In this document: positions 5,127 through 59,317 of the stretch, piece after piece | How the letters are laid out: each line of letters begins with the position of its first letter | How positions within the stretch are numbered: position 1 is the first letter of the stretch | Sequence record: OR352956.1 | DNA length: 64,000 bases | Origin: Escherichia phage AV126 | Strand: one strand, 5' to 3' | Notes under the pieces: generated by a model | What the model was told of the DNA's origin: nothing | The model's database searches: none | Seen by the model: only the letters and a program-made list of their open reading frames with translations | Program-made: the position numbers and the translations under genes

Positions 5127-5525
5127 ATGGCTAAAGGAATTACTTTATCTAACTCTCGCCAGGAATTCGGACACCTGGTTCTGGGTGGAGTGTTTAGCTC
5201 TGACCTTGGACACTGTGTACGTGAAGTTAACCTGGTTAAAACAGCAACCATGAAAATTGGTTCTATCCTGAAAGCTGACAACACTGAAGCTGCTAAAGCT
5301 GAAGCTGCCGATGCTGCTAAAGTTCTGATTTGGACTGATGCTCTGTTCGGTATTGACGATGTAGCAGTAGGTGACACTTTCACCGCAGTTGTTGGCGTAC
5401 GTGATCTTACTCTGAACCGCTTTGCAGTATACTACAAAGATGGCTCCCTGGTAGATGACGCTGGCGTAGCAGCACTGGAAACACATGATCTGAAACTGAC
5501 CGAAAAAGTCGTTTTCACTTCTTAA
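5127..5525 (+). CDS. putative head decoration protein
   Basis: 132 aa, AGGAG SD, codon-optimised, directly upstream of major capsid gene (lambda D-E-like arrangement). Confidence 0.4.
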   Translation: MAKGITLSNSRQEFGHLVLGGVFSSDLGHCVREVNLVKTATMKIGSILKADNTEAAKAEAADAAKVLIWTDALFGIDDVAVGDTFTAVVGVRDLTLNRFAVYYKDGSLVDDAGVAALETHDLKLTEKVVFTS

Positions 5526-5546
5526 TTTTAATAGGAGATTAATATA

Positions 5547-6548
5547 ATGCCAGCAGTAATTTTAGATCAGGTTGTAGATTTCAGCCCTATGATCGAACTT
5601 CAGGATTCCCCTGATACACTGATTGCCAGCCTGAATCTGTTCAGTGTTGACTATCATTCAACTACCGCTATTGAAATCGGTAAAGAAAAAGCTGAAGATG
5701 CTCTGATCTCCGCTCGTGAGCGTGGTGGTGAGCGTAACTTCCTGACCATGAAAAATCCAGAACTGAAAGCGTTCCGCATTCCGTTCTTCCCTCTGGATAA
5801 AAACATCAAAGCTCAAGATATTCAATCTTTCCGTAGCTTTGCAATGGCAGGAATCAATGACTCTCTGCGCACAGACGCTGAAGTTGTTAACCGCTATATG
5901 TCCCAGATTCTGCGTGACGTAGCAAAAACCAAAGAGAAAATCTTTGCAGAAGCAGTTATGGGTCGTGCCTATAACGGCGTAGGTGGTGCAGCTAACTCTG
6001 CATACAACTGGTATACTGAATGGGGTGCTACCCAGAAATCTGTTGCTGTAGACTTTGCTTCTACCACTGTTTCTCCAGCAGCCACTATCGAACAAGAAGC
6101 TCGTGCTTACATCATCGATACTAAACAAGATGGCTCTACCGCTACCCGTATCGTAGCTCTGTGTTCTCGTGAATTTTTCGCATCTCTGGTTAACTCCCCA
6201 TTTGTTCGCCAAGCTTATCAGTATTTCCAGGGAACTCCTAACCTTCTGCGTGACCGCCTTAGCGGTAACATGGATGTTCAGGTGTTCGAATGGAACGGTG
6301 TAACTTACATTGAAGATATCCACGGTAACATCCCTGCTGGTGAAGCATATGTTCTGCCTATGGGTATCGAAGGTATGTTCCAGGCGCACTACGCTCCTGC
6401 GGATACTCCAGAACTGGCTAACACCCAGGCTCGTGAACTGTATACCTTCATGATCAGCCAGCACCGCACTATTCAGCTTCAGTCTGAATTCTCGCTGCTC
6501 GCAGTTAACACCCGTCCAGAACTGGTAGTTAAACTGACTACGGCTTAA
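5547..6548 (+). CDS. major capsid protein
   Basis: 333 aa; AGGAG SD; strongest codon optimisation in window; followed by strong intrinsic terminator; lambda-E-like size and position. Confidence 0.7.
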   Translation: MPAVILDQVVDFSPMIELQDSPDTLIASLNLFSVDYHSTTAIEIGKEKAEDALISARERGGERNFLTMKNPELKAFRIPFFPLDKNIKAQDIQSFRSFAMAGINDSLRTDAEVVNRYMSQILRDVAKTKEKIFAEAVMGRAYNGVGGAANSAYNWYTEWGATQKSVAVDFASTTVSPAATIEQEARAYIIDTKQDGSTATRIVALCSREFFASLVNSPFVRQAYQYFQGTPNLLRDRLSGNMDVQVFEWNGVTYIEDIHGNIPAGEAYVLPMGIEGMFQAHYAPADTPELANTQARELYTFMISQHRTIQLQSEFSLLAVNTRPELVVKLTTA

Positions 6549-11864: not shown

Positions 11865-13853
11865 TTGTTAGAAATTAACGCCTCCAAAATTAGTAACGTG
11901 GTTACGTTTAAGGTGGACAAGAACAGTCTCAAGGAAGCAAAAGATGCCGTGTTGAGTGTTCAGAAGTTTGCAAATAAAATGCAACCCACTATGAACATGA
12001 CCAAGTTTAGACAACAAATGAAAGAGATTGAGCGTGAACTTAAGAAAGCTCAAACTCAAAGTCAAAAACCTATGCGAGCACCTACTCCCGCTGGAGCGGG
12101 TGCTCCTGTAGGCGGATCTGGCAGACCTAGAACTCCTAAAACCCCGCAAGGAAGAGAAGAAGAAAAAGCTCGTAAAGCTGCTGAACGCGAAGCTAAAGCA
12201 GCAGCACGTAGGGAAGACTTAGGTAATCTTCGTTTGCAGAACTTTAACTACAGAGCAAGAGCATTTAGTAAAGCCAGTCCTGGCGCTATGCAAGAAGCTA
12301 GAGACGTTATGGGTAAAGCTGTAGAGCAATACAAAAAGGGTGAAATAACTCTTCAACGTATGAACCAAGCTCTTGCTCACCAGTTGGATGCTTTACGCAG
12401 ATCTCATCGTGAAAAGAATGCTGAAATAGAAGACGAGGTTCGCGGTCGTCGCCGTATTCGTAGAGAGTTAGAAGCAGAAGCTAAAATGCGTATACGTATG
12501 CGAAATCGTGAACTTAGGGATATAGAACGAAATCGTAAGCGTGAATTAGCACAACAAAAACGTGATCGTGACCGTAGATATGGACAATTAAAAGAAGGTG
12601 CAGCAGGTCTTAATCCACGTATGATTGCATCCTCTTTGATAGGTGCTGGGCTGTTTGCAGGTGGTTCTGTAGTTGGTAACACGTTGATGAATACTAACGA
12701 AAGAATTAAACTTGTAAGCCGTGGTGCTGAAAACGTTCAGACAAACGCCAACGCTATTTTGGCAATGACAGCTTGGGGTGAACAGAACGGTGTAGACTCT
12801 GCAAATATTATTAAATCAATAGATAATATTAAAGACGTTCGTGAACGTCTTGGTAATACAGTTTTAGCTGCAAAGTGGAATGAGAAAGAAGGGAAGTGGA
12901 AAGGCGGTGATAATGGCATAACTGACATTATGAACTTGTTTGGATGGAATCCAGAACAGCTTAAACCTTTACAGAACGATCCTTTAGCTTTTATTCAGGC
13001 TACTGTTAATGAAGGTGAGCGTCGAGGTATGAACTCTGCTCAAATCGGGCGACTTCTTGAAAACCTTGGTGATGACCTTATGCACTACCAACGTATGTTT
13101 AGTAAAAACGGCGAAGGATATAATGAAGTATTGAAAATGCTTCAAAGAACAGGTGCAACATTAACTCAAGAACAAATAGATGCTTCTAAAGAGTTTACTC
13201 GTTTTGCTGCAACAGTTCAGCTTGTAGGTCAAGGTATGCAGAATCATTTCTTAGAGGGTTTTGTAAAAGCTTTACCTAAAGATGATTCTTGGTTGGATAA
13301 CGTTAAAGTGCTAGATCAGTTCGCCAAAGATTTAGGTGAAGAACTTGGTAAAACAACAGTTCAACTTGGTGGTTTTGCTAAAGAATTAGGAGATGGTTTC
13401 GGATCTTTTACCAATTGGCTTAAAGAAACATTCCCAGATACCTTCGGAGACAACACAGATCCTAATAAATCTTTGGCACAAAAAGCATACGAGGCAACGC
13501 AAAGTGGAGACAGCAATCCTGTAGCAGATTGGTTGTACAATTTAACAGGTATTGATACACAAGATATTGGTCGTATGTGGAGAGGAGAACAAACAAGGAC
13601 ACGTGCTTTTGGATTTGGTAATCCTCTTGAAGATTTACGTGAATCAGCCTATACACCTAACGTAAGTTTGGCTCGTAATCAACCTGTTGTTGAGAATACG
13701 GTAGCAATACCAAGTGATCTTATCAAAGTTACGATCAGCCCTTCTTCCGAGTTTGGAAATATTCTTGATGCAAGAATTCAAAATAGCGGAAATAGTATTT
13801 TCCAACGTTTGTCTCTTTCAACTCTAAGTGGACAATCTAACACTGGTGGTTAA
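11865..13853 (+). CDS. tail tape measure protein
   Basis: 662 aa; TTG start with GAGG SD; Arg/Lys/Glu coiled-coil N-half, Gly-rich hydrophobic segment (IASSLIGAGLFAGGSVVG); position after chaperone. Confidence 0.65.
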   Translation: MLEINASKISNVVTFKVDKNSLKEAKDAVLSVQKFANKMQPTMNMTKFRQQMKEIERELKKAQTQSQKPMRAPTPAGAGAPVGGSGRPRTPKTPQGREEEKARKAAEREAKAAARREDLGNLRLQNFNYRARAFSKASPGAMQEARDVMGKAVEQYKKGEITLQRMNQALAHQLDALRRSHREKNAEIEDEVRGRRRIRRELEAEAKMRIRMRNRELRDIERNRKRELAQQKRDRDRRYGQLKEGAAGLNPRMIASSLIGAGLFAGGSVVGNTLMNTNERIKLVSRGAENVQTNANAILAMTAWGEQNGVDSANIIKSIDNIKDVRERLGNTVLAAKWNEKEGKWKGGDNGITDIMNLFGWNPEQLKPLQNDPLAFIQATVNEGERRGMNSAQIGRLLENLGDDLMHYQRMFSKNGEGYNEVLKMLQRTGATLTQEQIDASKEFTRFAATVQLVGQGMQNHFLEGFVKALPKDDSWLDNVKVLDQFAKDLGEELGKTTVQLGGFAKELGDGFGSFTNWLKETFPDTFGDNTDPNKSLAQKAYEATQSGDSNPVADWLYNLTGIDTQDIGRMWRGEQTRTRAFGFGNPLEDLRESAYTPNVSLARNQPVVENTVAIPSDLIKVTISPSSEFGNILDARIQNSGNSIFQRLSLSTLSGQSNTGG

Positions 13854-22998: not shown

Positions 22999-25005
22999 AT
23001 GTCAACTACAATTACTAATTTACCCGAAACATCAAAAGTTAATGGTTCTGATTACCTGGTTTTAGACCAACCTGATAAGACTGTTAAAAGCACAGTTTCC
23101 AACTTTCTTAAAGTTGCTGGAATATACAAGCATTTCTCCTCTTTTTACGAGATGATTGCATCCACGGAGGAAGAGTTACCTGTAGATTCAGTATGCTCAA
23201 CCGGCGGCACAATGTGGGTTAGGTCTGCTACTCAGCCGGCATTAACATCCTTTACCCCTATAAGTGCGATTTGCGGAGATGATTTCGGCATAACCGCTGG
23301 AGGGTCTGTCCCTGGCCAGACCATATCTGATTTCCTAACTGTAGCTTACACATCTGGGTGCCGTGGGTACTTCAAGTCAGTCGGTGAAGTTACTGTAACC
23401 AGCAGTATAGAACTATTGTCGATTGATAAAAACTTAGTTGTTGATTGGTCTGGCATAAAGCTGTTCGGGGCCTCTGATGGGGTGGAAATGCACCTGTCAT
23501 CAACCGAGATTCAGTCTTCACTTCTTGCTGATATGGATCGTGGCTCTACAGTTGTGCGGGTGGCCGGGGCTGTAGAGGGTGATTTGATTTACATAGAGGA
23601 TAACGAGAAGTACGAGACTCAGTGGGGATTTAACTCCAGGGAGTTGTTTATTGCAGAGCGTGAGTCTGGTTCTGATATGAAAATTGATCGACCTTCCCTT
23701 TTCAGGCACTTGATCGCAAACAACGTTAAGGTGAACAGGTACAAACCAGTAAGGTTGATTTTCAACAACTTCAAGATGGAGCATTTCAATAACCGTGATA
23801 ACTCATCTTTTGTGAATGTAGGCTCCGTGTCATTCGGGACTTCATCTTCGTGGTTTCGCGGTTTTTATATGCCTGTTTTTTCTGGTGACGTGGAGACTAG
23901 CGGCGGTTCTTCATACTCATTGATAGCTTGCTACATGCCGAGGGTTGGTAATGTAGTTGCTAATAGGTGTCAATACCCTATTAGCCCAGCAGCAGGCACT
24001 TATGACACAGTTATTGAGAGCATCACAGCAACATTCTGCCGACATGCTGCCGCTCCAACAACTTGGTTCAATAAGTTTGAGGTTAAAAAGTGCTTCGGCT
24101 ACAACAACTTCGCCACGATGGACTCCCACGCGGGTTTTGATGCTAAATGGCGTAATGTGTTCGCAACGGAAGAACAAGACATGCCGAATATAAGATGCAT
24201 TGGTGGTGAGATTACCGATATCAATATAGTTGCCAGCTTAGGTACAACCCCTGCGGAAGACCCCCAGATAGGTCTCGTTACATTCACTGGTGATGCTTCT
24301 ATGTACAGAGATTGGATTGCCACTAATGTTACGCTCAATTATAAGAACCGAACCGATGATATTTTCGCATTACCATGGCAGGCTGATAATGTCTATTACG
24401 AAAATATTAACTGCATGGGGGGCTTTATTAGATGCGCAAACACAGCATCAAAAATAAAAACAGTAACATTAACAAACATCAATGCCAGCGTGAGACTGGT
24501 AGGTAACTGCGGAAATCTGAAAACATTAATAAACAACAGGGTAATTCCAGATGGTAGTTTCTACATGTATGAGAATGCACCGAACGCGAAGAGAACTACA
24601 TTATGGGAAGTTAACTGTGGGCATACTTCGGGGGCGTCTGCTAACAAAGTTTTAAAGATTTTTGATAACTATGGAACATCAGAATCACAAAACCTACTAG
24701 TAAAAGTTAAGTCGTGCTCTTCATATAATAACGGAGGATCCGTTGCTTATATTGAGAAGACGTACCTAGTAAATCATAAGCTCAGCGCGAACTCTTCCGC
24801 GTCGATATCAGGACCTGTGAATGAAACTCGCATAAACGGCGTGACAGATTCGGACATATCACTCAATGTAACATTAACTAATTCTGCGGGATACACACAG
24901 TCACCAGATATAAACGCGCATTTCTTTGAGCTAACTATAGCTACAGCCACAAGTAGACCGAATAACGTATTCGGTATAACTGTAGAGATATCAAAACTCA
25001 ATTGA
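22999..25005 (+). CDS. tailspike / receptor-binding protein (chimeric)
   Basis: 668 aa; AT-rich conserved-looking N-terminal anchor (MSTTITNLPETSKVNGSDYLVLDQ), then body with higher GC and different codon usage. Confidence 0.5.
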   Translation: MSTTITNLPETSKVNGSDYLVLDQPDKTVKSTVSNFLKVAGIYKHFSSFYEMIASTEEELPVDSVCSTGGTMWVRSATQPALTSFTPISAICGDDFGITAGGSVPGQTISDFLTVAYTSGCRGYFKSVGEVTVTSSIELLSIDKNLVVDWSGIKLFGASDGVEMHLSSTEIQSSLLADMDRGSTVVRVAGAVEGDLIYIEDNEKYETQWGFNSRELFIAERESGSDMKIDRPSLFRHLIANNVKVNRYKPVRLIFNNFKMEHFNNRDNSSFVNVGSVSFGTSSSWFRGFYMPVFSGDVETSGGSSYSLIACYMPRVGNVVANRCQYPISPAAGTYDTVIESITATFCRHAAAPTTWFNKFEVKKCFGYNNFATMDSHAGFDAKWRNVFATEEQDMPNIRCIGGEITDINIVASLGTTPAEDPQIGLVTFTGDASMYRDWIATNVTLNYKNRTDDIFALPWQADNVYYENINCMGGFIRCANTASKIKTVTLTNINASVRLVGNCGNLKTLINNRVIPDGSFYMYENAPNAKRTTLWEVNCGHTSGASANKVLKIFDNYGTSESQNLLVKVKSCSSYNNGGSVAYIEKTYLVNHKLSANSSASISGPVNETRINGVTDSDISLNVTLTNSAGYTQSPDINAHFFELTIATATSRPNNVFGITVEISKLN

Positions 25006-25026
25006 CACACCACAAATAAAAACTAG

Positions 25027-25042
25027 TCCTGCTTCGGCGGGG
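25027..25042 (+). terminator. UUCG-tetraloop hairpin after tailspike gene (no U-tract)
   Basis: CCTGC-TTCG-GCGGG, same motif family as terminator at 13861; followed by GTAATCATT. Confidence 0.3.
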
Positions 25043-25072
25043 TAATCATTGAGAATAACAATAGGAGTACAT

Positions 25073-25171
25073 ATGGAATCTCAACTCAGTCAACCTAAGC
25101 AGGTTATCAACGTCAAAGTGAACAAGCAGAGTATCGCTCATGATTTAAAAAGTAATGAGAACGCACTATGA
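25073..25171 (+). CDS. small hypothetical protein (32 aa)
   Basis: ATG 7 nt after AGGAG SD; stop overlaps next start (ATGA). Confidence 0.3.
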   Translation: MESQLSQPKQVINVKVNKQSIAHDLKSNENAL

Positions 25172-25410
25172 GAAAATTTTTAATAGGTATGTTCTGTACA
25201 TATCCTGATAATAAAGTCAGTTCTACTAAAGTCTGGAACGCTGTAGGCATGTCGGTTATGACAGGCATGTTTATCTTTTTAGGAATAGAAAAAGAAATTC
25301 CTGAATGGATGGGTTGGGCTTTTGTTTTCATGATAACCCCTTCTCGCCTCATGAAAAATCTTATTGATTTACGTTGGGGCAGATCACAATCTACCAAAGA
25401 GGATGACTAA
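25168..25410 (+). CDS. small membrane protein, holin-like topology
   Basis: 80 aa; two hydrophobic segments (VWNAVGMSVMTGMFIFLGI; WMGWAFVFMITP) and charged C-terminus (RWGRSQSTKEDD). Confidence 0.3.
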   Translation: MRKFLIGMFCTYPDNKVSSTKVWNAVGMSVMTGMFIFLGIEKEIPEWMGWAFVFMITPSRLMKNLIDLRWGRSQSTKEDD

Positions 25411-26897
25411 TGGACGAATATGGTTTGACAGATGCGGGATTTGTAATCCCGACTTTTGACGATGTTTTAAACAACTACATGACAGCAGTAAAAAACACAT
25501 TTGGTGCAGATGCAGCCACTTCGGAAGATACTGTGATCGGACAACTGTTTAGAATAATTGCATACACAGATTACACATTGTGGGAAGGTATGCAAGGGGT
25601 TTATAATACTCAAACACTGGATGGTGCAGAAGGTATTTATCTTGACGAAATCTTTTCTAAACGTGGTTTCTATCGAGCAGGGGCAGCAGCAAGTACAGGT
25701 TATGCATATGTTAAGAGTAATAACAAAGCAGCTTGGACTTATGAGCTAGGCACGGATATTTACTTCAACTCTGATAGTGATATGAACTACTATGTTAGCA
25801 CACCAACTATGTTGAATGCTAAGATTGCAGCTTATCAAATCTCTCGTGCTAATGCAACTGCTACAGGTGTTCCAAATATTACTTTTTATGCACAAAGTGC
25901 GGTAGACGGAGGACTAAACAGTAAAACACTTGCACCTGGTTCTTCTACATTTATAACAGATCTTGAAACTTTTATCAAGGCGAACTTAACAGAGGCTGAT
26001 CGTAGTCTTGTATTTTCTGATTCTGGTAACTTGTCAATTGGTTTTACTTCTTTAACCAGTGATACTCCAGTGGGATTAGTAACTCCTATCAAATTTTATG
26101 CTAGTGTTCCAGTTGGAACCAAATGGAGTGAAATTCCGGTAGTTGCAGCAGAGAAAGGATACAATCCGGTGGGTGTGGAGTCTATTACAGGGATATCTTC
26201 TACCTTTACAGGTTATCTTGATAGTGGTAACTTCTATTCGTTTTCTCCTGGTCGAGATGTTGAGACAGATGCAGAATTCCGCTCTCGTTTCAATGACAAC
26301 GTTGACGAAGCTAACGCAGGGACACGAGCAGCTATTGTGAAAGCTCTGTTACTTACAGATGGTGTTACTAAGGTGAAGATTTATGATAACCCTACGTTAC
26401 ATGATCAAGAACATGCTCCAGCTATGACTTTCCAGACTATAGTCTATGGAGGGAGTGCTGAAGAAGTTGCTGAAGTTATTTACAAAACTAAACCAATCAA
26501 CAGTTTGACACATGGAACAACTAATATAACTGTTACAACGGAAGACGGAGGACAAGAAATTATTCGTTTTTCTCCTGGTGCTTCTGCTACGTATTCCGTA
26601 AAACTTGTTTATCAAACTGTCAACGGAACAACTTTAAGTGGAACAGAAAAACAAAACATTGTAGAAGCTTTACAAAACCTGCAAGCTTACTTTGAATTAG
26701 GTTCTTCAGTAACGAACGATCAAATCAAAGGTGTTATTTATGCAGCACTTGCTTTTGGACGCTTGACTTCTCTTCGTGTTTATGTTAAACTTAATACTGA
26801 GGATGACAGTAAATATACAGAGAATAATATAGTTCCTGCTTATAATGTTGTCCCTTCTTTTGACCTTGATAACATTTCTTACGAGTATGGAGTGTAA
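25410..26897 (+). CDS. baseplate J-like protein
   Basis: 495 aa; LDGAEGIYLDEIFSKRGFYRAGAAASTGYAYV resembles the baseplate-J motif; followed by I-like gene and tail fibre. Confidence 0.45.
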   Translation: MDEYGLTDAGFVIPTFDDVLNNYMTAVKNTFGADAATSEDTVIGQLFRIIAYTDYTLWEGMQGVYNTQTLDGAEGIYLDEIFSKRGFYRAGAAASTGYAYVKSNNKAAWTYELGTDIYFNSDSDMNYYVSTPTMLNAKIAAYQISRANATATGVPNITFYAQSAVDGGLNSKTLAPGSSTFITDLETFIKANLTEADRSLVFSDSGNLSIGFTSLTSDTPVGLVTPIKFYASVPVGTKWSEIPVVAAEKGYNPVGVESITGISSTFTGYLDSGNFYSFSPGRDVETDAEFRSRFNDNVDEANAGTRAAIVKALLLTDGVTKVKIYDNPTLHDQEHAPAMTFQTIVYGGSAEEVAEVIYKTKPINSLTHGTTNITVTTEDGGQEIIRFSPGASATYSVKLVYQTVNGTTLSGTEKQNIVEALQNLQAYFELGSSVTNDQIKGVIYAALAFGRLTSLRVYVKLNTEDDSKYTENNIVPAYNVVPSFDLDNISYEYGV

Positions 26898-26899
26898 AA

Positions 26900-27529
26900 A
26901 TGGCAGTGAGTGTTGACCATGTAACAACTTGGGCCAGTATCAATGAAGACGTTAAAAACCTTCTGATTGAAGATTTTAAATCTTCTCCTAACATTGTCAA
27001 GCTCCTCTACATCGTATCCAGTGAAAAGCAAAAGATAGATCAGGCAATGATCTATCTTGCTAAACACCGCTTGATCTCCACAGCCACAGGCAAATACCTA
27101 GATATCTTAGGAGAAGAAATGGGGATCGAACGTAATGGCTCTGATGATGAAGAGTATAGAACAATATTAAAAATCAGGGCTTACCGCGTAGCCTCATCGG
27201 GGACTCGTGGTGACATAATTGATATCTTCGCCCGTTTCACAGGAACCGAGCGTGAAACGCTTAATACTTACGTAGGTTTGAATAAAACCTTTGATGTGTT
27301 TTTCTACAACCTGTGTCTTCAATCTGATCAAGCTTTAGAGCAGTTGCTAAGTGTTTTTCCTATTATTAGCAGCTACCGTCTTGGAGCAAAAGCAGGATCA
27401 GCTTTTGGTTTTAGTTCTTATTATGCTACCAAACCGCCTCATGGTATTGGTGGTTTAGGTTCCCTGTACATGGAATCTACTGGGGATGAAACAGGACGCA
27501 TGTGTACGCTTCTCAAGCAAATAGATTAA
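26900..27529 (+). CDS. putative baseplate/tail protein (P2 gpI-like position)
   Basis: 209 aa between J-like gene and tail fibre. Confidence 0.35.
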   Translation: MAVSVDHVTTWASINEDVKNLLIEDFKSSPNIVKLLYIVSSEKQKIDQAMIYLAKHRLISTATGKYLDILGEEMGIERNGSDDEEYRTILKIRAYRVASSGTRGDIIDIFARFTGTERETLNTYVGLNKTFDVFFYNLCLQSDQALEQLLSVFPIISSYRLGAKAGSAFGFSSYYATKPPHGIGGLGSLYMESTGDETGRMCTLLKQID

Positions 27530-27538
27530 GGAGTTTAA

Positions 27539-28600
27539 ATGGCGAAGCCAATATATTATCCTGACTGGGCTACACAAACTGTAACGCTCCCAGGAACTTT
27601 AAACACAAACAAAATTAGACCTAAAGAAACCATCCGCACAGTTGGTATGGATTATGGTCAAATCATGACTTGCGAAGAAATGAACTGGATTCTTAATAAT
27701 ATCGGTTTATGGATTCGTTATTTGGTGGATGACTTTATTCCAACTTTACCTAATACTTACTTGCCTTTAGTTGGAACTAAGATTACAATGGCAGGTGATG
27801 CTACTGGTGAGGCTACTTGGAACGGTGATAAAGAAGTTATTTTATCTATCCAAGTTCAAGATAACAGTCATAATCACTTATCGGCAAACATTACAGATGC
27901 TACTAGTTCAATAGTAACACCAAATGTGTTGGTAAAACGTGATGCAGGTGGTGCTATTTATGGTGGTGATGTTTATGTTAATGGTACTTCCACAACAGAT
28001 CCTGCAACCCTGTTTTTCAAGAACTTTGCAGGACAGACTAATGGTGAGATTTCTGCCGAATACCAAAGTGGAGGTCAGCTTTATATTTATCGTAGAAATC
28101 CTAGCACAGGTAGTGTAGCCGCAGGTGTTCGTTTATATGATGCAGGTTATGTTCTAATAGACAATCCAAGATCAAACAATGGACAAGACACTTCAAACGG
28201 AAATGCTTTAGTTCGCTTAGATTATCTGAATTCTCGTTTGACCTCTCTTCAGAACACATTGCAGACGAATATTAACACTGTTCAAAACAACTTGAATAAT
28301 GTTAACAACAACCTCTCTTCTCGTATAAACAATGTAGAAAGTAATCATCAAAGTCAGATTACAAATAACTACAACTATGCTAACGGAACCTTTGTAAGAG
28401 ATATTCGTTATACTAGCCAGGGTGTGTATTATCCGCCAGGGAACGAAGTTTCTTGGACTTATATCTGTTCTTCTGGTTATGTTCTTTCTGGTATTATTGT
28501 TCAGGAAACAGGTCGTAGTTCTGCGGATAACATTGGTGGGGTTTACTTCAAACGCCTCCAGCGCAACGTTAACGGAAACTGGTACGATATTGGAGGCTAA
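27539..28600 (+). CDS. tail fibre protein
   Basis: 353 aa; Asn/Gln/Thr-rich with coiled-coil (LDYLNSRLTSLQNTLQTNINTVQNNLNNVNNNLSSRINNVESN); directly upstream of tail fibre assembly gene. Confidence 0.55.
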   Translation: MAKPIYYPDWATQTVTLPGTLNTNKIRPKETIRTVGMDYGQIMTCEEMNWILNNIGLWIRYLVDDFIPTLPNTYLPLVGTKITMAGDATGEATWNGDKEVILSIQVQDNSHNHLSANITDATSSIVTPNVLVKRDAGGAIYGGDVYVNGTSTTDPATLFFKNFAGQTNGEISAEYQSGGQLYIYRRNPSTGSVAAGVRLYDAGYVLIDNPRSNNGQDTSNGNALVRLDYLNSRLTSLQNTLQTNINTVQNNLNNVNNNLSSRINNVESNHQSQITNNYNYANGTFVRDIRYTSQGVYYPPGNEVSWTYICSSGYVLSGIIVQETGRSSADNIGGVYFKRLQRNVNGNWYDIGG

Positions 28601-29146
28601 ATGATATTTACAAATTTTAAAAAGTATATTCCTGAAGATCCTGAACTAAAAGAATTGGTAGAAGCAGAGAACATTCTTTTCCTTCGTTGTGATCAAGGTT
28701 ACGATTGGTATGATTTACGTAGCACAGAATTCAATAACGATAAAATGAAAGTCGTTTTTGATGATCAAAATCGTATTGTGTTTTGGAATACTGATCCTAC
28801 ACTACTTTGCCCTGAAGATCTTTCTATAGCACAAGTAGACTTTAATATAGATACTTTTGAGGATATTAGGAACAAGGTTTTAGATTTAGAAACCTTAACT
28901 CTTAAGGATAAAGAGTATTCCCGTGAAGAGTTGATGACACAAACTAGTGCAAAGATTCGCTCTTTACAAGAAACAGCGGTAGCACTTATAACACCTTTAC
29001 AATATGCTAAAGATTTAGAAATGGCTACTGAAGATGAATTAGCTTATCTTAAAAATCTTCAAGTTTATGTGGTTAAACTAAACCGTGTTCCGCTTCAAAA
29101 AAACTATCCTTACGCTATAGATTGGCCTACATTACCGACGGAATAA
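28601..29146 (+). CDS. tail fibre assembly protein (Tfa-like chaperone)
   Basis: 181 aa; C-terminus (LQYAKDLEMATEDELAYLKNLQVYVVKLNRV...IDWPTLP) matches the conserved Tfa motif. Confidence 0.7.
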   Translation: MIFTNFKKYIPEDPELKELVEAENILFLRCDQGYDWYDLRSTEFNNDKMKVVFDDQNRIVFWNTDPTLLCPEDLSIAQVDFNIDTFEDIRNKVLDLETLTLKDKEYSREELMTQTSAKIRSLQETAVALITPLQYAKDLEMATEDELAYLKNLQVYVVKLNRVPLQKNYPYAIDWPTLPTE

Positions 29147-29155
29147 GGGATCACT

Positions 29156-29491
29156 ATGGAATTTCAAGAAGCATGGGGACTTGCAAAGGATGCAATCATC
29201 CCTTTAATCGGAGTCATCTGGTTCTTTTTCAAACAAAAAATGGATAAATTCGGCTCTGATCTTGAGGAAATGGAGGAGAAAAGTCGAGAGCTAGAGAAGA
29301 AGTTGGTCTTTGTTGAATCAACTTATGCAACTAAAGCCGAACTTACCCAGATGCTAAATCAAATTAACTCTACATTAATGGCAAATAATAACACTCTTGA
29401 GCAAAAGATTGAAAAGATTATGGACCTCAAGAATGCTACTATTCAAATGATGCTAGATGACATAGTTAAACGTACACAGAATAAGGGGTAA
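29156..29491 (+). CDS. membrane-anchored coiled-coil protein (holin- or spanin-like topology)
   Basis: 111 aa; single N-terminal TM (AIIPLIGVIWFFF) then coiled coil; GGGATCAC SD. Confidence 0.3.
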   Translation: MEFQEAWGLAKDAIIPLIGVIWFFFKQKMDKFGSDLEEMEEKSRELEKKLVFVESTYATKAELTQMLNQINSTLMANNNTLEQKIEKIMDLKNATIQMMLDDIVKRTQNKG

Positions 29492-29494
29492 TTA

Positions 29495-32400
29495 ATGGCA
29501 ACATTCCCAACATATCCAGCAACGTCTCTTGAACAGGGCGTAGATCTGGTTATTTTCTCGTCTAACCAACTCCATGATGTTATTAATGGAAGTGCTACAG
29601 AGAGTATTGAAACAGAATCAGGGTTGATACCAACCCTGAGAAAAGCCCTTGTTGACAACTTTTTCTTTAAAAGTCCATTAGATTGGGCGCAAGGCACAAA
29701 CGAAACAGTTTTTAACCAACTTCGTTATTTCCAGAACGGAGTGTTGAGTGGTTATTACTATGCGCCTAATGCTACGCTGGTAAACCCAATTCCTATGCAA
29801 GGGACTCCAGTAGGAGATAACAACTGGGTATTGTGGGGACTGAAGACAGAACAACTAGCAACAGAAGTCACCCCTTGGGTATATTCTGGTGCAACTGGTT
29901 ATGAAACAGTAATCAGTCCTCCCTACATCTTTGATAGTGCTATTGTTACAATCAATGGTGTTATTCAGGTTCTGGGAGAAGCTTTCCGCATAGAAGATAG
30001 TAAAATCATTTTATCTGAACCTTTGGGACATGATCCTGCAACAGGACTGCCAAACAAGCTTTTTGCCTATATTGGTAAAATCGTAGCTTCCGCAGATACA
30101 GATCCTAACTTAGAAAACCGTCTTGTCAGTTTAGAAACAAAAACTGAAGAACTGACAGAAAGCATGGATAAAGTACCTTTACAAACTATTGCTCGTAAAT
30201 ACGGTTTGTTGGATGACGAAGTAGCTTACGCAACAGCGGGTCAATCATTAACAGGGATTAAAGCTCTGTATGATCCGGTAGCACAATCTTCCTACACATT
30301 GCCTCCTAACATCACAGGGACTTTAACATCTTTGTCTGTTTCTGGAGTAATGACTTATTCTGGCGGATCTGTAGATCTTTCTGCATTAGCTGTTGAACGT
30401 GGACAGTTTGTTCATTTGCCTACAAGCTTTGGTAATAATGTAACTCTGACAGCTAAAAATCAGACGATTGGGCGTGGCGCTGGTCGCTATCGTTGGGCGG
30501 GAAGTTTACCAAAAAGTATTTTAGCTTCTGATACATTGGAAACAAGTGGTGGATTAGGTCCAAATGCATGGGTTCTAACTAATACAGAAGGACTGTTAAC
30601 CCCTCGTGGTGGAACATACAACGATTTATTCGATGTTGTCCACTTGTCAGAATTTGCTAACAATACAACTACATATACCACACCAGAAGCAGCTTTCCAG
30701 GCGGCACTGTTAGCAGCAAAAGCTTCGAAAAGTAAGATTCTCGACGCTTACGGTTGCGATATGACTTTCACGACAAGCTCTTTTGATATTCAAGATATCA
30801 CTTTGCGTGGGGGTGTGTTCCGTGGTCAACGCGACTATCGTGTGCAAAATGCTACAGTAGAAGGCACAACTTTCCGTAACTCTCGTGTTATGTATTGGGG
30901 TGGTGCTGTGCGCATGTTCGATTGTTTGTGGGACGGTGCTCCTCGCGCAGGTCAAGTTGGTAGCTTGGTATTCCAAGGCAACCCAATATCAGGTACTTTT
31001 GAAATTGATAATTGTACTTTTAAAAATGGGTTATATGGCATCCTTCAACAAGGAACAGGGGAACCAGTAACACGCGGTGTCTTCCGTAACCTTACCTTCA
31101 TGGACATGCAAGGTGATGCAATAGAACTGAACGTCATCAATAAACATTATGATGATGGTTGTGTGATTGAGAATATTTACCTGTCTAATATCGATGGGAC
31201 TAACGCTCCTATTCCTCTGTCCAACTGGGGTATCGGTATTGGTGTAGCTGGTAAAGGACCATATGGTTACGGAATCCCTGATGATCAATATTGCAAGAAT
31301 ATTACAATTCGTAACGTTTTTGCAAAACGTTGTCGTCAGATTGTCCACGTAGAAGTTGGCCGTAATATTTCTATCGAAAACATTCATGGCGATCCAGATC
31401 AAACTGTATCTGTTGGGACAGGTTTGGCAACTGGCGCAGTTGTAATGTATGGAAGTAAAGATTTTACGATTGATGGTGTTTACGGAGAGCCTAAAACAGA
31501 CGGTAGCACACTTGCAAGTAATATCCGTATGATTTATTTGGAGTGGGGAACTAACGCAGTTCTGGACGAAGAGGGCAATCCGGTAGTTCCGGCACAGGGC
31601 AGACCTTCAAACCCATGCTTTAACTATTCTGTTCGTAACATTCACACCAAAACTGGGCGTGTTTTTGCAGGAGTTTCCGCTGGGCCAGGTTATGAAAACA
31701 GAGTCAGCTTTGAGAATATCCGTTGTGCTGCGTTGCAGTTGTTCGGTGTAGCTTCTTGGCTTTCAATGTCTAACATCACCTGTAATATCTTTGATTGTGT
31801 TGGTCAACCTGAATCTGGTCCAGGGACATTTTATGATGGATTCTTCCGTAGAGAAAAATCTGTTCTTGAGATGGTTAACGTAAACTGTTACCCAGATGGC
31901 AAGACTATGGTTACTGGTCGTCCACAGTGGAGCCGTTGCCGTTACTCTGATATTCATCGTGTCAACTGTAATGTTGAAGCTAATATGTATACCAATATCG
32001 CAGGTGGTATTGGAGCTATTGTAGGGACAACTGGCAAAGTTTATTACTTAGAGCCTAACCCTAGCCGAAACATTGATGGGATGCATTTCCCAACAGGGAA
32101 GGAGTTTGACAAAGGGGATATGATAGTCAAAGCGGATAATACGTTCTTCCTTGTAACAACAAGTGGGGCATACATTCCAGATATCCCAGCTTTCGGTATT
32201 CGAGCTACACAGGCAGGAGATACCTTCCTGACACAGAACTTGACTCCTAACGGGACAGCAACAAACGCTTCTTGGTTGTATCACTATCCTCTGTCAGCAG
32301 GAACACGTATCCGTATTCCTGGTGCTGGTGTAGGTGGAGCAGATTTGGACACAGTTATTACTCGTGCACCTTATCAAGATAATGATACGTGGACTAACCC

Positions 32401-32548
32401 AGTTAAAATAGACATTGCAGATCCAATTGTAACGCCTACGAGTGCTGGAGTTAGAATCAAAACCATACCTAACGATTCTAGTAATGTTTCTGTAGGTAAT
32501 ACTGCGGTTATTCGCCCAACACCAGTGGTAGATGTGCCAACAACCTAA
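29495..32548 (+). CDS. tailspike protein with right-handed beta-helix (pectate-lyase-like) domain
   Basis: 1017 aa; central region with periodic Asn/Ile/Val/Gly repeats typical of parallel beta-helix (NITIRNVF, ISIENIHGD, VFRNLTFMDMQGDAIELNV). Confidence 0.5.
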   Translation: MATFPTYPATSLEQGVDLVIFSSNQLHDVINGSATESIETESGLIPTLRKALVDNFFFKSPLDWAQGTNETVFNQLRYFQNGVLSGYYYAPNATLVNPIPMQGTPVGDNNWVLWGLKTEQLATEVTPWVYSGATGYETVISPPYIFDSAIVTINGVIQVLGEAFRIEDSKIILSEPLGHDPATGLPNKLFAYIGKIVASADTDPNLENRLVSLETKTEELTESMDKVPLQTIARKYGLLDDEVAYATAGQSLTGIKALYDPVAQSSYTLPPNITGTLTSLSVSGVMTYSGGSVDLSALAVERGQFVHLPTSFGNNVTLTAKNQTIGRGAGRYRWAGSLPKSILASDTLETSGGLGPNAWVLTNTEGLLTPRGGTYNDLFDVVHLSEFANNTTTYTTPEAAFQAALLAAKASKSKILDAYGCDMTFTTSSFDIQDITLRGGVFRGQRDYRVQNATVEGTTFRNSRVMYWGGAVRMFDCLWDGAPRAGQVGSLVFQGNPISGTFEIDNCTFKNGLYGILQQGTGEPVTRGVFRNLTFMDMQGDAIELNVINKHYDDGCVIENIYLSNIDGTNAPIPLSNWGIGIGVAGKGPYGYGIPDDQYCKNITIRNVFAKRCRQIVHVEVGRNISIENIHGDPDQTVSVGTGLATGAVVMYGSKDFTIDGVYGEPKTDGSTLASNIRMIYLEWGTNAVLDEEGNPVVPAQGRPSNPCFNYSVRNIHTKTGRVFAGVSAGPGYENRVSFENIRCAALQLFGVASWLSMSNITCNIFDCVGQPESGPGTFYDGFFRREKSVLEMVNVNCYPDGKTMVTGRPQWSRCRYSDIHRVNCNVEANMYTNIAGGIGAIVGTTGKVYYLEPNPSRNIDGMHFPTGKEFDKGDMIVKADNTFFLVTTSGAYIPDIPAFGIRATQAGDTFLTQNLTPNGTATNASWLYHYPLSAGTRIRIPGAGVGGADLDTVITRAPYQDNDTWTNPVKIDIADPIVTPTSAGVRIKTIPNDSSNVSVGNTAVIRPTPVVDVPTT

Positions 32549-50789: not shown

Positions 50790-51311
50790 TTAACTCCCCT
50801 TTGGTAGATAGAAACCATGCACTTTATCTCGATAAACAAGACGCATATCACGCTCCCAGTGTGTCCTTATATTCCGTTTCTTGAAGTATAGAGCACCTTT
50901 AGTAACATCTAAAACAGACCGCAATTCAGGAAAATGTTTCTCTAAATAAAGTAAACGTTCCGCTATTGCTTTTGCTTCCTGCCACTTATCTTTTTCTGTT
51001 ACGTTAAAAGTTTTCGCATATGAGAATTGCCCTTTCTGGAACAAGACTCCTCTGACTGTGTTAGGGAAGTATGTATCATTTCTTCTGTTGATTACTACAT
51101 TCCCAACGGCATTCATTCCTTTTTTACCCAGACCTCGACCTTCTGCGTAAATTGCACAAGCTAATAGAATTTTATCATTATATTGCTTTGTACATTTGTG
51201 AACTACTTTAGCAGTTTTTACGTTTGCAGCTTCGGCTTTCGCCACAACAGGTGTAAATGTAAAAGCAGTTAAGGATAGTAACGCAACTGTTACAAAGTTT
51301 TTTATCAGCAA
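50790..51311 (-). CDS. secreted cell wall hydrolase, SleB/CwlJ family (putative signal-peptide endolysin)
   Basis: 173 aa; TTG start after AAAGGAGG SD; signal peptide (MLIKNFVTVALLSLTAFTFTPVVAKA); VGNVVINRRNDTYFPNTVRGVLFQKGQFS matches family core. Confidence 0.7.
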   Translation of the reverse strand: MLIKNFVTVALLSLTAFTFTPVVAKAEAANVKTAKVVHKCTKQYNDKILLACAIYAEGRGLGKKGMNAVGNVVINRRNDTYFPNTVRGVLFQKGQFSYAKTFNVTEKDKWQEAKAIAERLLYLEKHFPELRSVLDVTKGALYFKKRNIRTHWERDMRLVYRDKVHGFYLPKGS

Positions 51312-57027: not shown

Positions 57028-57465
57028 TTAACGTCGCTTGCTACGAGATGAACTCTTTTTACTTAAAGGGCTATTGTAAGATTTACGAGTTGTATAGCTA
57101 CTATTTGTTTTAAAAGTTTGTCTCGGCTTTTCATAAGTTTTTATCTCTTGTTTAGGCTTACCATAAAAATTAGTTTTCGGCTTAGGTGTATTATAATGCT
57201 TATTAATAATCGTTCTGTTATCGTTATAATCTCCACTGCTACGATTACTACCGCCACTCATCATATGCCCTAACAACATACCTGTAGCAAACTCACCAAC
57301 ACCGCTACTACTAGAACCGCCACCATTGTTGATAATAGTTGTATCTCCGTCAGATCCTTGTTGAGCGTATTGTTGAGGAGGTTGTTGGTATTGTGCAGGA
57401 TTTGTTTCATCCTCGCAAGCTGTTAAAAAGATACAACCAATTAAAATCAGGGCTAGTTTTTTCAT
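57028..57465 (-). CDS. putative lipoprotein
   Basis: Start MKKLALILIGCIFLTAC: signal peptide with lipobox LTAC; Gln/Gly/Ser-rich then basic C-terminus; ORF-track N-terminal extension rejected. Confidence 0.55.
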   Translation of the reverse strand: MKKLALILIGCIFLTACEDETNPAQYQQPPQQYAQQGSDGDTTIINNGGGSSSSGVGEFATGMLLGHMMSGGSNRSSGDYNDNRTIINKHYNTPKPKTNFYGKPKQEIKTYEKPRQTFKTNSSYTTRKSYNSPLSKKSSSRSKRR

Positions 57466-57652
57466 ATTTGCTTTCCTCGTTTTGGCTATTAATACATCTG
57501 TGTTTGAAATCTCCAGAGAAGCAATAAAGTTGCTCTCCATCTCGGTATAAACTCACTTTACTGCCGTTGATTACGCTTGTCAATACAAAAATTACAACAA
57601 ACAACCCTATTGCAAAACAGATATTTTCAAACACAACCAACAAGTATTTCAT
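57407..57652 (-). CDS. small membrane protein
   Basis: 81 aa; N-terminal TM (ICFAIGLFVVIFVLTSVI); 3' end overlaps lipoprotein start in another frame, so one of the two starts may be wrong. Confidence 0.35.
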   Translation of the reverse strand: MKYLLVVFENICFAIGLFVVIFVLTSVINGSKVSLYRDGEQLYCFSGDFKHRCINSQNEESKYEKTSPDFNWLYLFNSLRG

Positions 57653-58041: not shown

Positions 58042-59016
58042 TTAAACAGCAGCTTCTTCTTTTTCAGGGAAGATAAAGCTTGCAATAACACCAAGAGCTA
58101 ATGTGCCTAGAACAATCATCAGACTTACGTTAGGGGAAATATCATGCGGGAGGAATGACCATTTGGCATGAAGTGTTTCACCGAACGGGTGATACATAAG
58201 TTTAGCACCAACAAACACCAGAACCACAGCAACAGCTTTCTCTAAGTGAACCAGATATTTCACAGCTACACTTAACACAAAGAAAAGTGCACGTAAACCA
58301 AGAACAGCCATCAGCATTGCAGAATAAACTAGCAGAGGTTCTTGTGTCACCCCGATCACAGCCGGAACTGAATCAAAAGAGAAGACAATATCTGTAAGCT
58401 CAATAACAAACACACAAAGAAGAGCAGGAGTTGCATATTTAATACCATTCTTAATGGTAATGAACTTTTCACCATCCAGTGCATTGTGCACAGGCAGAAC
58501 TTTACCTACTAAACGAACAGCCCAATGCTTAGAGTAATCAATATCCTCTTCTTCGTCACCACCTTTGATGATAGCCACGGCAGACCAGGCTACAATCAAA
58601 CCGAACAACACTTGGACCGACCAATGAAGGTTAAACAAAGCGGTGCCTGCTGCAACAAAAATACCTCGGAAGACAATGGCTCCTGCAATCCCCCAAAGTA
58701 AAATCTTATGTTGGAGATGTGTGCTCTTAATTCCAAAGCTTGCAAAAATTGCCATGAACACCATCAGGTTATCTACAGAAAGACTCTTTTCCAACACATA
58801 ACCACTTAGGAAAAGCGCGGCAAACTCTTTACCATGTTCTACCCAAATGAATGCGTAATATCCTAAAGCTAAAGCAATCCAAAAAACAGACCAAAGCAAA
58901 GCAGATTTAATTCCAATTTCTTTATTCTCTTTATGACCAAAGAAATCGATACCAATAGACAATGCCAAAATACCAACTAAAACAACTACATCAATAATTG
59001 GGAAACCGAGTTGCAT
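58042..59016 (-). CDS. terC: TerC-family integral membrane protein
   Basis: 324 aa, multiple TM segments; EKSLSVDNLMVF and FSFDSVPAVIGVT match the two TerC signature repeats. Confidence 0.75.
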   Translation of the reverse strand: MQLGFPIIDVVVLVGILALSIGIDFFGHKENKEIGIKSALLWSVFWIALALGYYAFIWVEHGKEFAALFLSGYVLEKSLSVDNLMVFMAIFASFGIKSTHLQHKILLWGIAGAIVFRGIFVAAGTALFNLHWSVQVLFGLIVAWSAVAIIKGGDEEEDIDYSKHWAVRLVGKVLPVHNALDGEKFITIKNGIKYATPALLCVFVIELTDIVFSFDSVPAVIGVTQEPLLVYSAMLMAVLGLRALFFVLSVAVKYLVHLEKAVAVVLVFVGAKLMYHPFGETLHAKWSFLPHDISPNVSLMIVLGTLALGVIASFIFPEKEEAAV

Positions 59017-59095: not shown

Positions 59096-59317
59096 TTATT
59101 TTGTTGAATGAGAGGAAAAGATTCCTCGTAATACAGCCAGAATAAACGAAACACAAACCACGGTCCAGAAGGTTACTGGGACAGTGATATCTGCATGACC
59201 CATAACTTCAGCAACATAGTTGTAAGCCAGCAACAGTAACCAAGCTGGAATCAAACTAAGCATAAAAGCAATAACAAAAAAGCTTACCACTGCAACAATA
59301 CCTGCAAAAACACCCAT
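59096..59317 (-). CDS. small membrane protein
   Basis: 73 aa, two hydrophobic helices. Confidence 0.45.
   Translation of the reverse strand: MGVFAGIVAVVSFFVIAFMLSLIPAWLLLLAYNYVAEVMGHADITVPVTFWTVVCVSFILAVLRGIFSSHSTK

Follow-up and report, generated by a model that had tools for sequence, protein, structure and literature searches.

Two small genes in the wedge and tail-fibre block of an Escherichia coli myophage, encoding proteins of 80 amino acids (positions 25168-25410) and 111 amino acids (29156-29491), form a linked pair throughout the rV5/phi92-like myophages. Judged from sequence comparison, the 80-aa protein appears to be the only small membrane protein common to the phi92-like and rV5-like subfamilies. 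The best single explanation for this protein, a tentative one built on circumstantial evidence, is that it may act as the holin-type protein that times lysis in these phages.

Genomic setting of the two genes

The whole stretch of DNA that was analysed (the window; 64,000 nt, to which positions refer unless another record is named) belongs to a Phapecoctavirus, a phAPEC8-like myophage of E. coli. Megablast alignments over positions 24000-30000 showed 96-98% identity to many Phapecoctavirus genomes (Stephanstirmvirinae, ~150 kb) and ~76% identity to the phi92-like Justusliebigvirus. Similarity to relatives restarts only at ~25138, because the upstream tailspike gene has been exchanged. For the Stephanstirmvirinae phages PhiWec188-190, the host inner-membrane protein YhaH was reported to be necessary for infection (PMC12695924).

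The block is encoded on the + strand. The 80-aa ORF (25168-25410; PHROG 1322, the family of phi92 gp144, rV5 gp029 and PVP-SE1 gp42) is predicted to encode a small inner-membrane protein. It has an ATGA overlap with a 32-aa stub ORF (25073-25171), and its stop overlaps the start (TAATG) of the gene directly downstream, which encodes a Baseplate_J baseplate wedge protein homologous to phi92 gp145 (25410-26897). There follow a second wedge protein (26900-27529; phi92 gp146 homologue), a gpH-like tail fibre (27539-28600; homologue of phi92 gp147, fibre III) and a tail-fibre assembly protein (28601-29146; Caudo_TAP). The 111-aa ORF (29156-29491; PHROG 15210; phi92 gp149), which encodes an N-terminal anchor and one long helix, begins 9 nt past the assembly gene, and 3 nt separate its end from the gene of a colanic-acid-degrading tailspike (colanidase; 29495-32548). 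Both ORFs are tightly packed in this structural operon, and consensus scans around them revealed no convincing promoter or terminator.

At the place of the 32-aa stub, relatives carry a 101-102 aa ORF labelled 'tail (spike) protein', of which the stub retains the final 9 codons and a part that resembles the N-terminus. The junction at ~25138 looks like an internal deletion or recombination tied to the exchanged tailspike gene (22999-25005).

The first-pass annotation had singled out the 80-aa and 111-aa ORFs as holin-like small membrane proteins inside the structural module. Both ORFs lie where it placed them and, based upon their PHROG matches and homologues, both are genuine genes and not chance ORFs. 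They encode conserved small membrane-anchored proteins in a predicted late structural operon, and are ordinary, already catalogued phage genes, known from databases and from one paper.

Conservation of the pair in related phages

A scan of IMG/VR found 38 loci, of which 20 were examined and 17 had enough flanking sequence for both genes to be scored. The 80-aa and 111-aa families occurred together in all 17, always inside the wedge/tail-fibre block. Two arrangements were seen. In arrangement A the 80-aa gene is followed by two wedge genes, a fibre gene, the assembly gene and the coiled-coil gene; in arrangement B two wedge genes, a fibre gene, the assembly gene and the coiled-coil gene come first, followed by an optional gene for a protein with four transmembrane (TM) segments, the 80-aa gene and a fibre gene. 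No lysin or spanin gene was found beside the 80-aa family gene in the examined IMG/VR loci, and there was no lysis-cassette context.

In the Vequintavirinae (rV5 gp031/gp029; PVP-SE1 gp44-gp43-gp42; Certrevirus; phage A73) and in the Aeromonas Plateaulakevirus, a coiled-coil protein of 104-112 aa is encoded after the fibre-assembly gene, and one or two genes later comes a PHROG 1322 gene, which immediately precedes a tail-fibre gene. Between the coiled-coil and PHROG 1322 genes, Seunavirus and Certrevirus carry a gene for a 4-TM protein of ~155 aa (PHROG 7451; gp43 of PVP-SE1, at 5452-5925 in locus L011). One type-A locus, on a phi92-like metagenomic contig, has the coiled-coil gene followed by one for a multi-TM protein of 157 aa (12223-12696 in locus L032). 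The PHROG 7451 protein is absent from the window; the label 'serine protease' that it bears in one record is without support. Two weak loci from the search (L057 and L058) were set aside as pattern artefacts with only 'IPEWMxWAFVF' in common.

Sequence and predicted topology of the 80-aa protein

The 80-aa protein matched the PHROG 1322 profile over its full length (residues 1-80, E 1.8e-27), and rV5 gp029 matched it too (E 2.7e-32). With tblastn, 371 phage records gave matches of 31-100% identity, and columns conserved across subfamilies were seen in the alignment. Word-indexed protein searches returned close relatives only, and an exhaustive profile search of 1.84 billion representatives gave only 23 clusters, all of one architecture. 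Direct homologues within PHROG 1322 include phi92 gp144 and a BME3 protein annotated 'membrane protein-holin' (WWY66332.1), both ~80-85% identical and encoded at the same place upstream of a wedge gene; the difference is a variable N-terminal extension, with lengths of 80 to 88 aa.

A two-TM protein with a charged C-terminus had been proposed. The charged C-terminus is present, with five basic and four acidic residues in positions 59-80 (net charge ~+1), and by hydropathy the first TM segment is solid (TM1, residues 22-40, rich in small residues, including A25, G27, S29 and G33), but the second is short and weakly hydrophobic, a stretch of 11-12 residues from W47 to T57 that ends before P58. 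A crude insertion score was 2.4 for TM1 and 8.5 for segment 2; on the same scale TM1 resembles the helices of lambda S, and segment 2 resembles the S21 SAR helix and T7 gp17.5. Across the family the median score of segment 2 was 7.7, similar to that of a signal-arrest-release (SAR)-type helix, and in some relatives the segment is a continuous, more hydrophobic helix of 22 residues. One TMD was predicted in the homologue gp42 by the annotators of PVP-SE1. Structural prediction with AlphaFold2 (AF2), using a 19-sequence alignment, placed helices at residues 2-9, 19-41, 46-56 and 59-70 with low confidence (pLDDT 62).

Among 21 diverse relatives the N-terminal flank is net basic and the loop is net acidic; basic residues are found at the end of segment 2. 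These charges predict an N-in topology with the loop outside. An N-in/C-in hairpin is plausible for the family, because of this charge pattern and the longer segment 2 of some relatives, but is not secure for the protein of this phage, given its short second stretch and the low confidence of the AF2 model.

Residues S18, K21, W23, E46 and W47 are nearly invariant in the 21 relatives. The strongest conservation in the family is that of an amphipathic motif, LIxLRWG, in which R69 and G71 of 'LRWG' are invariant in an 11-sequence alignment; residues 57-68 are predicted to be an amphipathic helix (hydrophobic moment 0.66). Conservation of this motif suggests a specific protein partner. The C-terminal tail of the relatives is highly charged and ranges from 3 to 75 residues, long tails being net acidic. 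No dual-start motif is conserved in the family: M1 and M8 are found in the Stephanstirmvirinae, and the aligned Vequintavirinae homologues have no internal Met.

Sequence and predicted topology of the 111-aa protein

The 111-aa protein matched PHROG 15210 (E 4e-70), and homologues were found in 135 phage records. Its family is predicted to be homologous to rV5 gp031 and PVP-SE1 gp44 (PHROG 5345). Profile comparison of the 111-aa and rV5 gp031 families with hhalign gave a probability of 95.5% (E 1.6e-8) with collinear alignment over 82 columns, reciprocal weak matches were seen between the two PHROGs, and the genes share the same position after the fibre-assembly gene. Weak matches to PHROG 739 (E about 1e-3), a point of likeness to Rz-type i-spanins, were also seen.

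The earlier description of an N-terminal TM segment followed by a coiled coil was borne out in outline: AF2 predicted one helix spanning residues 2-110 (pLDDT 86). The anchor is weakly hydrophobic in this phage and its genus and strongly hydrophobic in the Vequintavirinae homologues. The flank that precedes the anchor contains no K or R in 21 of 22 family sequences, and two to four K/R residues lie within 15 residues past it. This distribution of charge predicts an N-out/C-in topology in which the coiled coil would be cytoplasmic.

In many records the 111-aa protein is labelled 'lipoprotein'. The sequence contains no cysteine and hence no lipobox, so the label is wrong and was rejected. Spanin function, which had also been entertained for this protein, did not survive either. 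Rz-type i-spanins share with it an N-terminal anchor and a coiled coil, but their topology, an N-in TM segment with a periplasmic coiled coil, is the opposite of that predicted here, and the i-spanin (Rz-like) reading was rejected. No lipobox ORF was found in or adjoining 29156-29491 that could encode an o-spanin partner, and in relatives an Rz/Rz1 pair is encoded elsewhere. A likeness to the placement of the T4 holin gene t had been pointed out as well. The position right after a tail-fibre assembly gene agrees with it, but the topology is opposite: T4 T (218 aa) is N-in with a large periplasmic domain, whereas the 111-aa protein is predicted to be N-out with a cytoplasmic coiled coil. A role as an antiholin-like partner or regulator of the 80-aa protein is possible, at most as speculation.

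Lysis genes and other candidate holins

A SleB-like cell-wall hydrolase is encoded on the - strand of the window (50790-51311; Hydrolase_2). It bears a Sec-type N-terminal signal (N-terminus MLIKNFVTVALLSLTAFTFTPVVAKA, ending …VVAKA, before EA), so export of the enzyme probably requires no holin. The 80-aa and 111-aa genes are far from it, as had been noted, the 80-aa ORF being ~25 kb away on the opposite strand. No TM segments were found in the products of the gene neighbours of 50790-51311; nothing membrane-like adjoins the gene, and a holin of the CB7 type, overlapping the SleB-like gene, was rejected for this phage. According to the CB7 paper, a homologue of the hydrolase is toxic when expressed. 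The enzyme is widespread (1094 records), so its co-occurrence with the 80-aa family is uninformative.

In the complete genome of the relative OR437326 there is also a gene for a cytoplasmic lysozyme, outside the region covered by the window. Directly upstream of TerL it carries an overlapping canonical Rz/Rz1 pair (OR437326.1, 38685-39312; PHROG 4297, E 5e-35), consisting of a protein with an N-in TM segment and a coiled coil, and a lipoprotein. Because the first position of the window falls within TerL, the Rz/Rz1 spanins lie just outside it. The annotated Rz1 start in OR437326.1 (MMTGC…) seems to truncate the signal peptide; an upstream ATG gives MQKLILAVCLALPLMMTGC. The same spanin/TerL layout was described in the paper on the Certrevirus CB7, in which the parallel with SP6-type phages was noted, spanin genes also lying next to TerL in T7 and SP6.

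No membrane protein was found beside either lysin, the SleB-like hydrolase or the lysozyme. When 18 lysis-related, small membrane or secreted proteins of OR437326 were compared with the full rV5 genome by BLAST, only two had homologues, the 80-aa protein (E 2e-15) and the SleB-like hydrolase (E 1e-27). The published holin candidate of rV5, ORF129, has no homologue in Phapecoctavirus and was discarded as a candidate here.

The 80-aa and 111-aa proteins had been called the best lysis candidates, which overstates their standing, as another candidate is encoded in the same stretch. The ORF at 59096-59317 (- strand) encodes a 73-aa protein with two to three strongly hydrophobic helices that is 60% identical to a 68-aa BME3 protein annotated 'holin'. 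This product had no rV5 homologue and no match to a holin family. The gene adjoins one for a TerC-like membrane protein (58042-59016). A further candidate, a 60-aa two-TM protein encoded next to a ligase gene, lies outside the window. Elsewhere on the - strand, 57028-57540 contains a likely lipoprotein (…LILIGCIFLTAC) and 57407-57652 encodes an 81-aa envelope protein with a strong N-terminal TM segment.

Virion proteins of related phages

Presence of the two proteins in virions had been named in the first-pass annotation as an outcome that would speak against lysis functions. Particles of relatives lean against a virion location. Mass spectrometry (MS) of Certrevirus CB7 virions identified 26 proteins, some of only ~14-17 kDa; gene products 29-31 and 36 were detected and 32-35 were not. 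Based upon gene order in the near-identical PcCB7V, we infer that CB7 32-35 correspond to the assembly, coiled-coil, 4-TM and PHROG 1322 proteins. The virion MS lists of rV5 and Felix O1 are likewise without counterparts of the 80-aa and 111-aa proteins. In a 2026 cryo-EM study of phi92 the baseplate was modelled from gp134-139, gp143 and gp145-147, and gp144 and gp149 are never mentioned. Some records (ESCO5, ESCO9, ABPW7) label the 80-aa homologue 'structural protein', which appears to be an inherited annotation. As far as the particles of relatives can tell, neither protein appears to be a virion component.

Discussion

A holin function for the 80-aa protein is plausible and compatible with everything found; the case is made from topology and context. 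As in holins, the protein is small, has at least one TM helix and ends in a hydrophilic, charged C-terminus. The close packing of its gene within the structural operon suggests that it may be expressed late, together with virion parts; its absence from the virion data of relatives, its unique conservation and the long, highly charged tails of some relatives also fit. The short, polar second segment, the low-confidence model, the protein partner suggested by the LIxLRWG motif, the net acidic character of those long tails and the existence of other candidates count against it. Linkage to an endolysin or spanin gene, which is common but not obligatory for holins, was not seen for the 80-aa gene. 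The holin genes 17.5 of T7 and t of T4 are late genes located beside tail-fibre genes and distant from the lysin gene; T7 gp17.5 and T4 T are alike to the 80-aa and 111-aa proteins in gene placement and show no homology to them.

A closer parallel in architecture is offered by class II holins such as the pinholin S21 68 of phage 21. Like the 80-aa protein these are small and have a charged tail, and the 80-aa protein may also form, as S21 68 does, an N-in/C-in hairpin with one weakly hydrophobic, small-residue-rich helix. Phage 21 also has a signal-bearing lysin, as here, where its gene lies elsewhere in the genome and not adjacent to the 80-aa gene. Unlike S21 68, the 80-aa protein has no sequence-family match and no dual-start motif, and its second segment is shorter and more polar. 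Searches of curated holin families (Pfam and NCBIfam, at E<=1-10) gave no match for the protein or for 20 distant relatives, and nothing meaningful was found in Pfam, NCBIfam or PADLOC for the 80-aa, 111-aa or 4-TM protein; matches to DUF2644 in two relatives (E 0.036) were taken as noise.

If the 80-aa protein is a holin, it would insert N-in as a helical hairpin, with the small-residue-rich TM1, a SAR-like second helix and a charged tail, and would build up in the inner membrane alongside the virion parts. On reaching a critical level it would depolarise or permeabilise the membrane. This event could activate the SleB-like hydrolase that had already been exported, release the cytoplasmic lysozyme, or both. 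The outer membrane would then be disrupted by the Rz/Rz1 spanins, whose genes adjoin TerL.

The literature contains no experimental demonstration of a holin for the rV5/phi92/phAPEC8 group, and the proposals that have been made differ. For rV5 the candidate put forward by its authors was ORF129, and for CB7 it was CB7_82, whose gene overlaps that of the SleB-like enzyme; the Felix O1 authors named five, among them gp79, encoded two genes past the tail fibre. For the phi92-like BME3 two small proteins were named as holin candidates by its authors with DeepTMHMM; in the GenBank record the 80-aa homologue is labelled 'membrane protein-holin' and the 68-aa protein is labelled 'holin'. The holin idea for the 80-aa family is therefore already in print, the BME3 authors having published it for a homologue.

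The strict flanking of the 80-aa gene by wedge and fibre genes fits a role in assembly nearly as well, and conservation of the gene may be a mere consequence of its place in a conserved structural module. Under this alternative the pair, with the optional 4-TM protein, would be membrane-anchored accessory factors that are not part of the virion and help to assemble or attach fibres, tailspikes or the wedge, for example by tethering intermediates through the cytoplasmic coiled coil. Such a role is considered somewhat unlikely. In its favour, synteny with wedge, fibre and fibre-assembly genes is strict, with 17 of 17 loci falling into two fixed arrangements; the gene immediately downstream of the 80-aa gene always encodes a wedge or fibre protein (in the window it is a wedge gene, and the two are translationally coupled), and the coiled-coil gene directly follows the assembly gene. 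The conserved amphipathic motif of the 80-aa protein suggests a protein partner, the coiled coil of the 111-aa protein is predicted to be in the cytoplasm, where assembly takes place, and both proteins are missing from virion data, as chaperones are. Against this, homologous Baseplate_J wedges are found in Felix O1-like, Rheinheimera and Vibrio phages, in 861 records compared with 371 for the 80-aa family, so that the wedge itself appears not to need the 80-aa protein, and the exhaustive profile search found only 23 clusters of the family. Furthermore, we are aware of no other fibre or baseplate chaperone that is anchored in a membrane, which also counts against an assembly role.

It is doubtful that the true holin is encoded elsewhere, for example by 59096-59317 or by the gene for the 60-aa protein with two TM segments that neighbours the ligase gene, and that the flagged pair does something else. 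The helices of the 73-aa protein are strongly hydrophobic, its BME3 homologue is annotated 'holin', and several more small TM proteins are encoded in the genome. Yet no rV5 homologue could be detected for any such candidate. The 73-aa gene, moreover, lies among non-structural genes on the opposite strand, beside the TerC-like gene, and its product has a short, weakly charged tail and matches no holin family.

Protection at the level of the membrane, as superinfection exclusion or a block of DNA entry or of self-adsorption, is improbable. T4 Imm and Sp, HK97 gp15, and T5 Llp or Cor offer analogies: these envelope proteins are small, and their genes frequently lie close to tail genes; Imm has two TM segments and Sp has one, and their sizes and architectures are like those of the 80-aa and 111-aa proteins. 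The two genes also sit in the receptor-binding module, and PHROG files family 1322 under 'moron/host takeover'. However, they share the late structural operon without a promoter of their own, and expression at that stage would come late for exclusion; their conservation in virulent phages is strict and not patchy like that of morons; and neither PADLOC nor any other family resource gave a match. A place in the virion as low-copy components, such as parts of the tail tip or ejection apparatus that act on membranes, is very improbable despite the 'structural protein' label on some 80-aa homologues (ESCO5, ESCO9, ABPW7) and the ease with which small hydrophobic proteins escape mass spectrometry, because CB7 virions yielded 26 proteins, some as small as ~14-17 kDa, without CB7_33-35 (a gene-number mapping that is itself inferred), the rV5 and Felix O1 lists lack counterparts, and the phi92 baseplate model was built without gp144 or gp149.

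A pair of similar design is present in phages that have a homologous baseplate. Felix O1 gp78/gp79 and SUSP1 agp027/agp028 each combine a small TM protein with an anchor-plus-coiled-coil protein at the end of the tail-fibre operon, and were proposed as holin from topology alone. In SUSP1 (12239-12807 in locus L060) the pair is encoded after the tail-fibre gene; the TM protein has 65 aa, and the anchor-plus-coiled-coil protein, which is annotated 'putative holin', has 124 aa. Profile comparison detected no homology between this pair and the 80-aa/111-aa pair, and the gene order differs. The analogy hints at some recurring functional theme. One rather unlikely possibility that would encompass both leading functions is that the two or three genes, for a hairpin, an N-out coiled coil and an optional 4-TM protein, make up an inner-membrane module, built into the wedge/tail-fibre operon, that is an uncharacterised device: either a new holin/regulator system that ties the timing of lysis stoichiometrically to the output of baseplates and fibres, or a membrane-tethered assembly station for multi-fibre baseplates.

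The rV5/phi92/phAPEC8 group includes many coliphages that are candidates for therapy, and the holin guess in the literature differs from phage to phage. Pairing of the 80-aa and 111-aa families, together with removal of the spanin and lipoprotein labels, is a useful outcome of the analysis, which narrows the holin field to one small membrane protein apparently common to both subfamilies.
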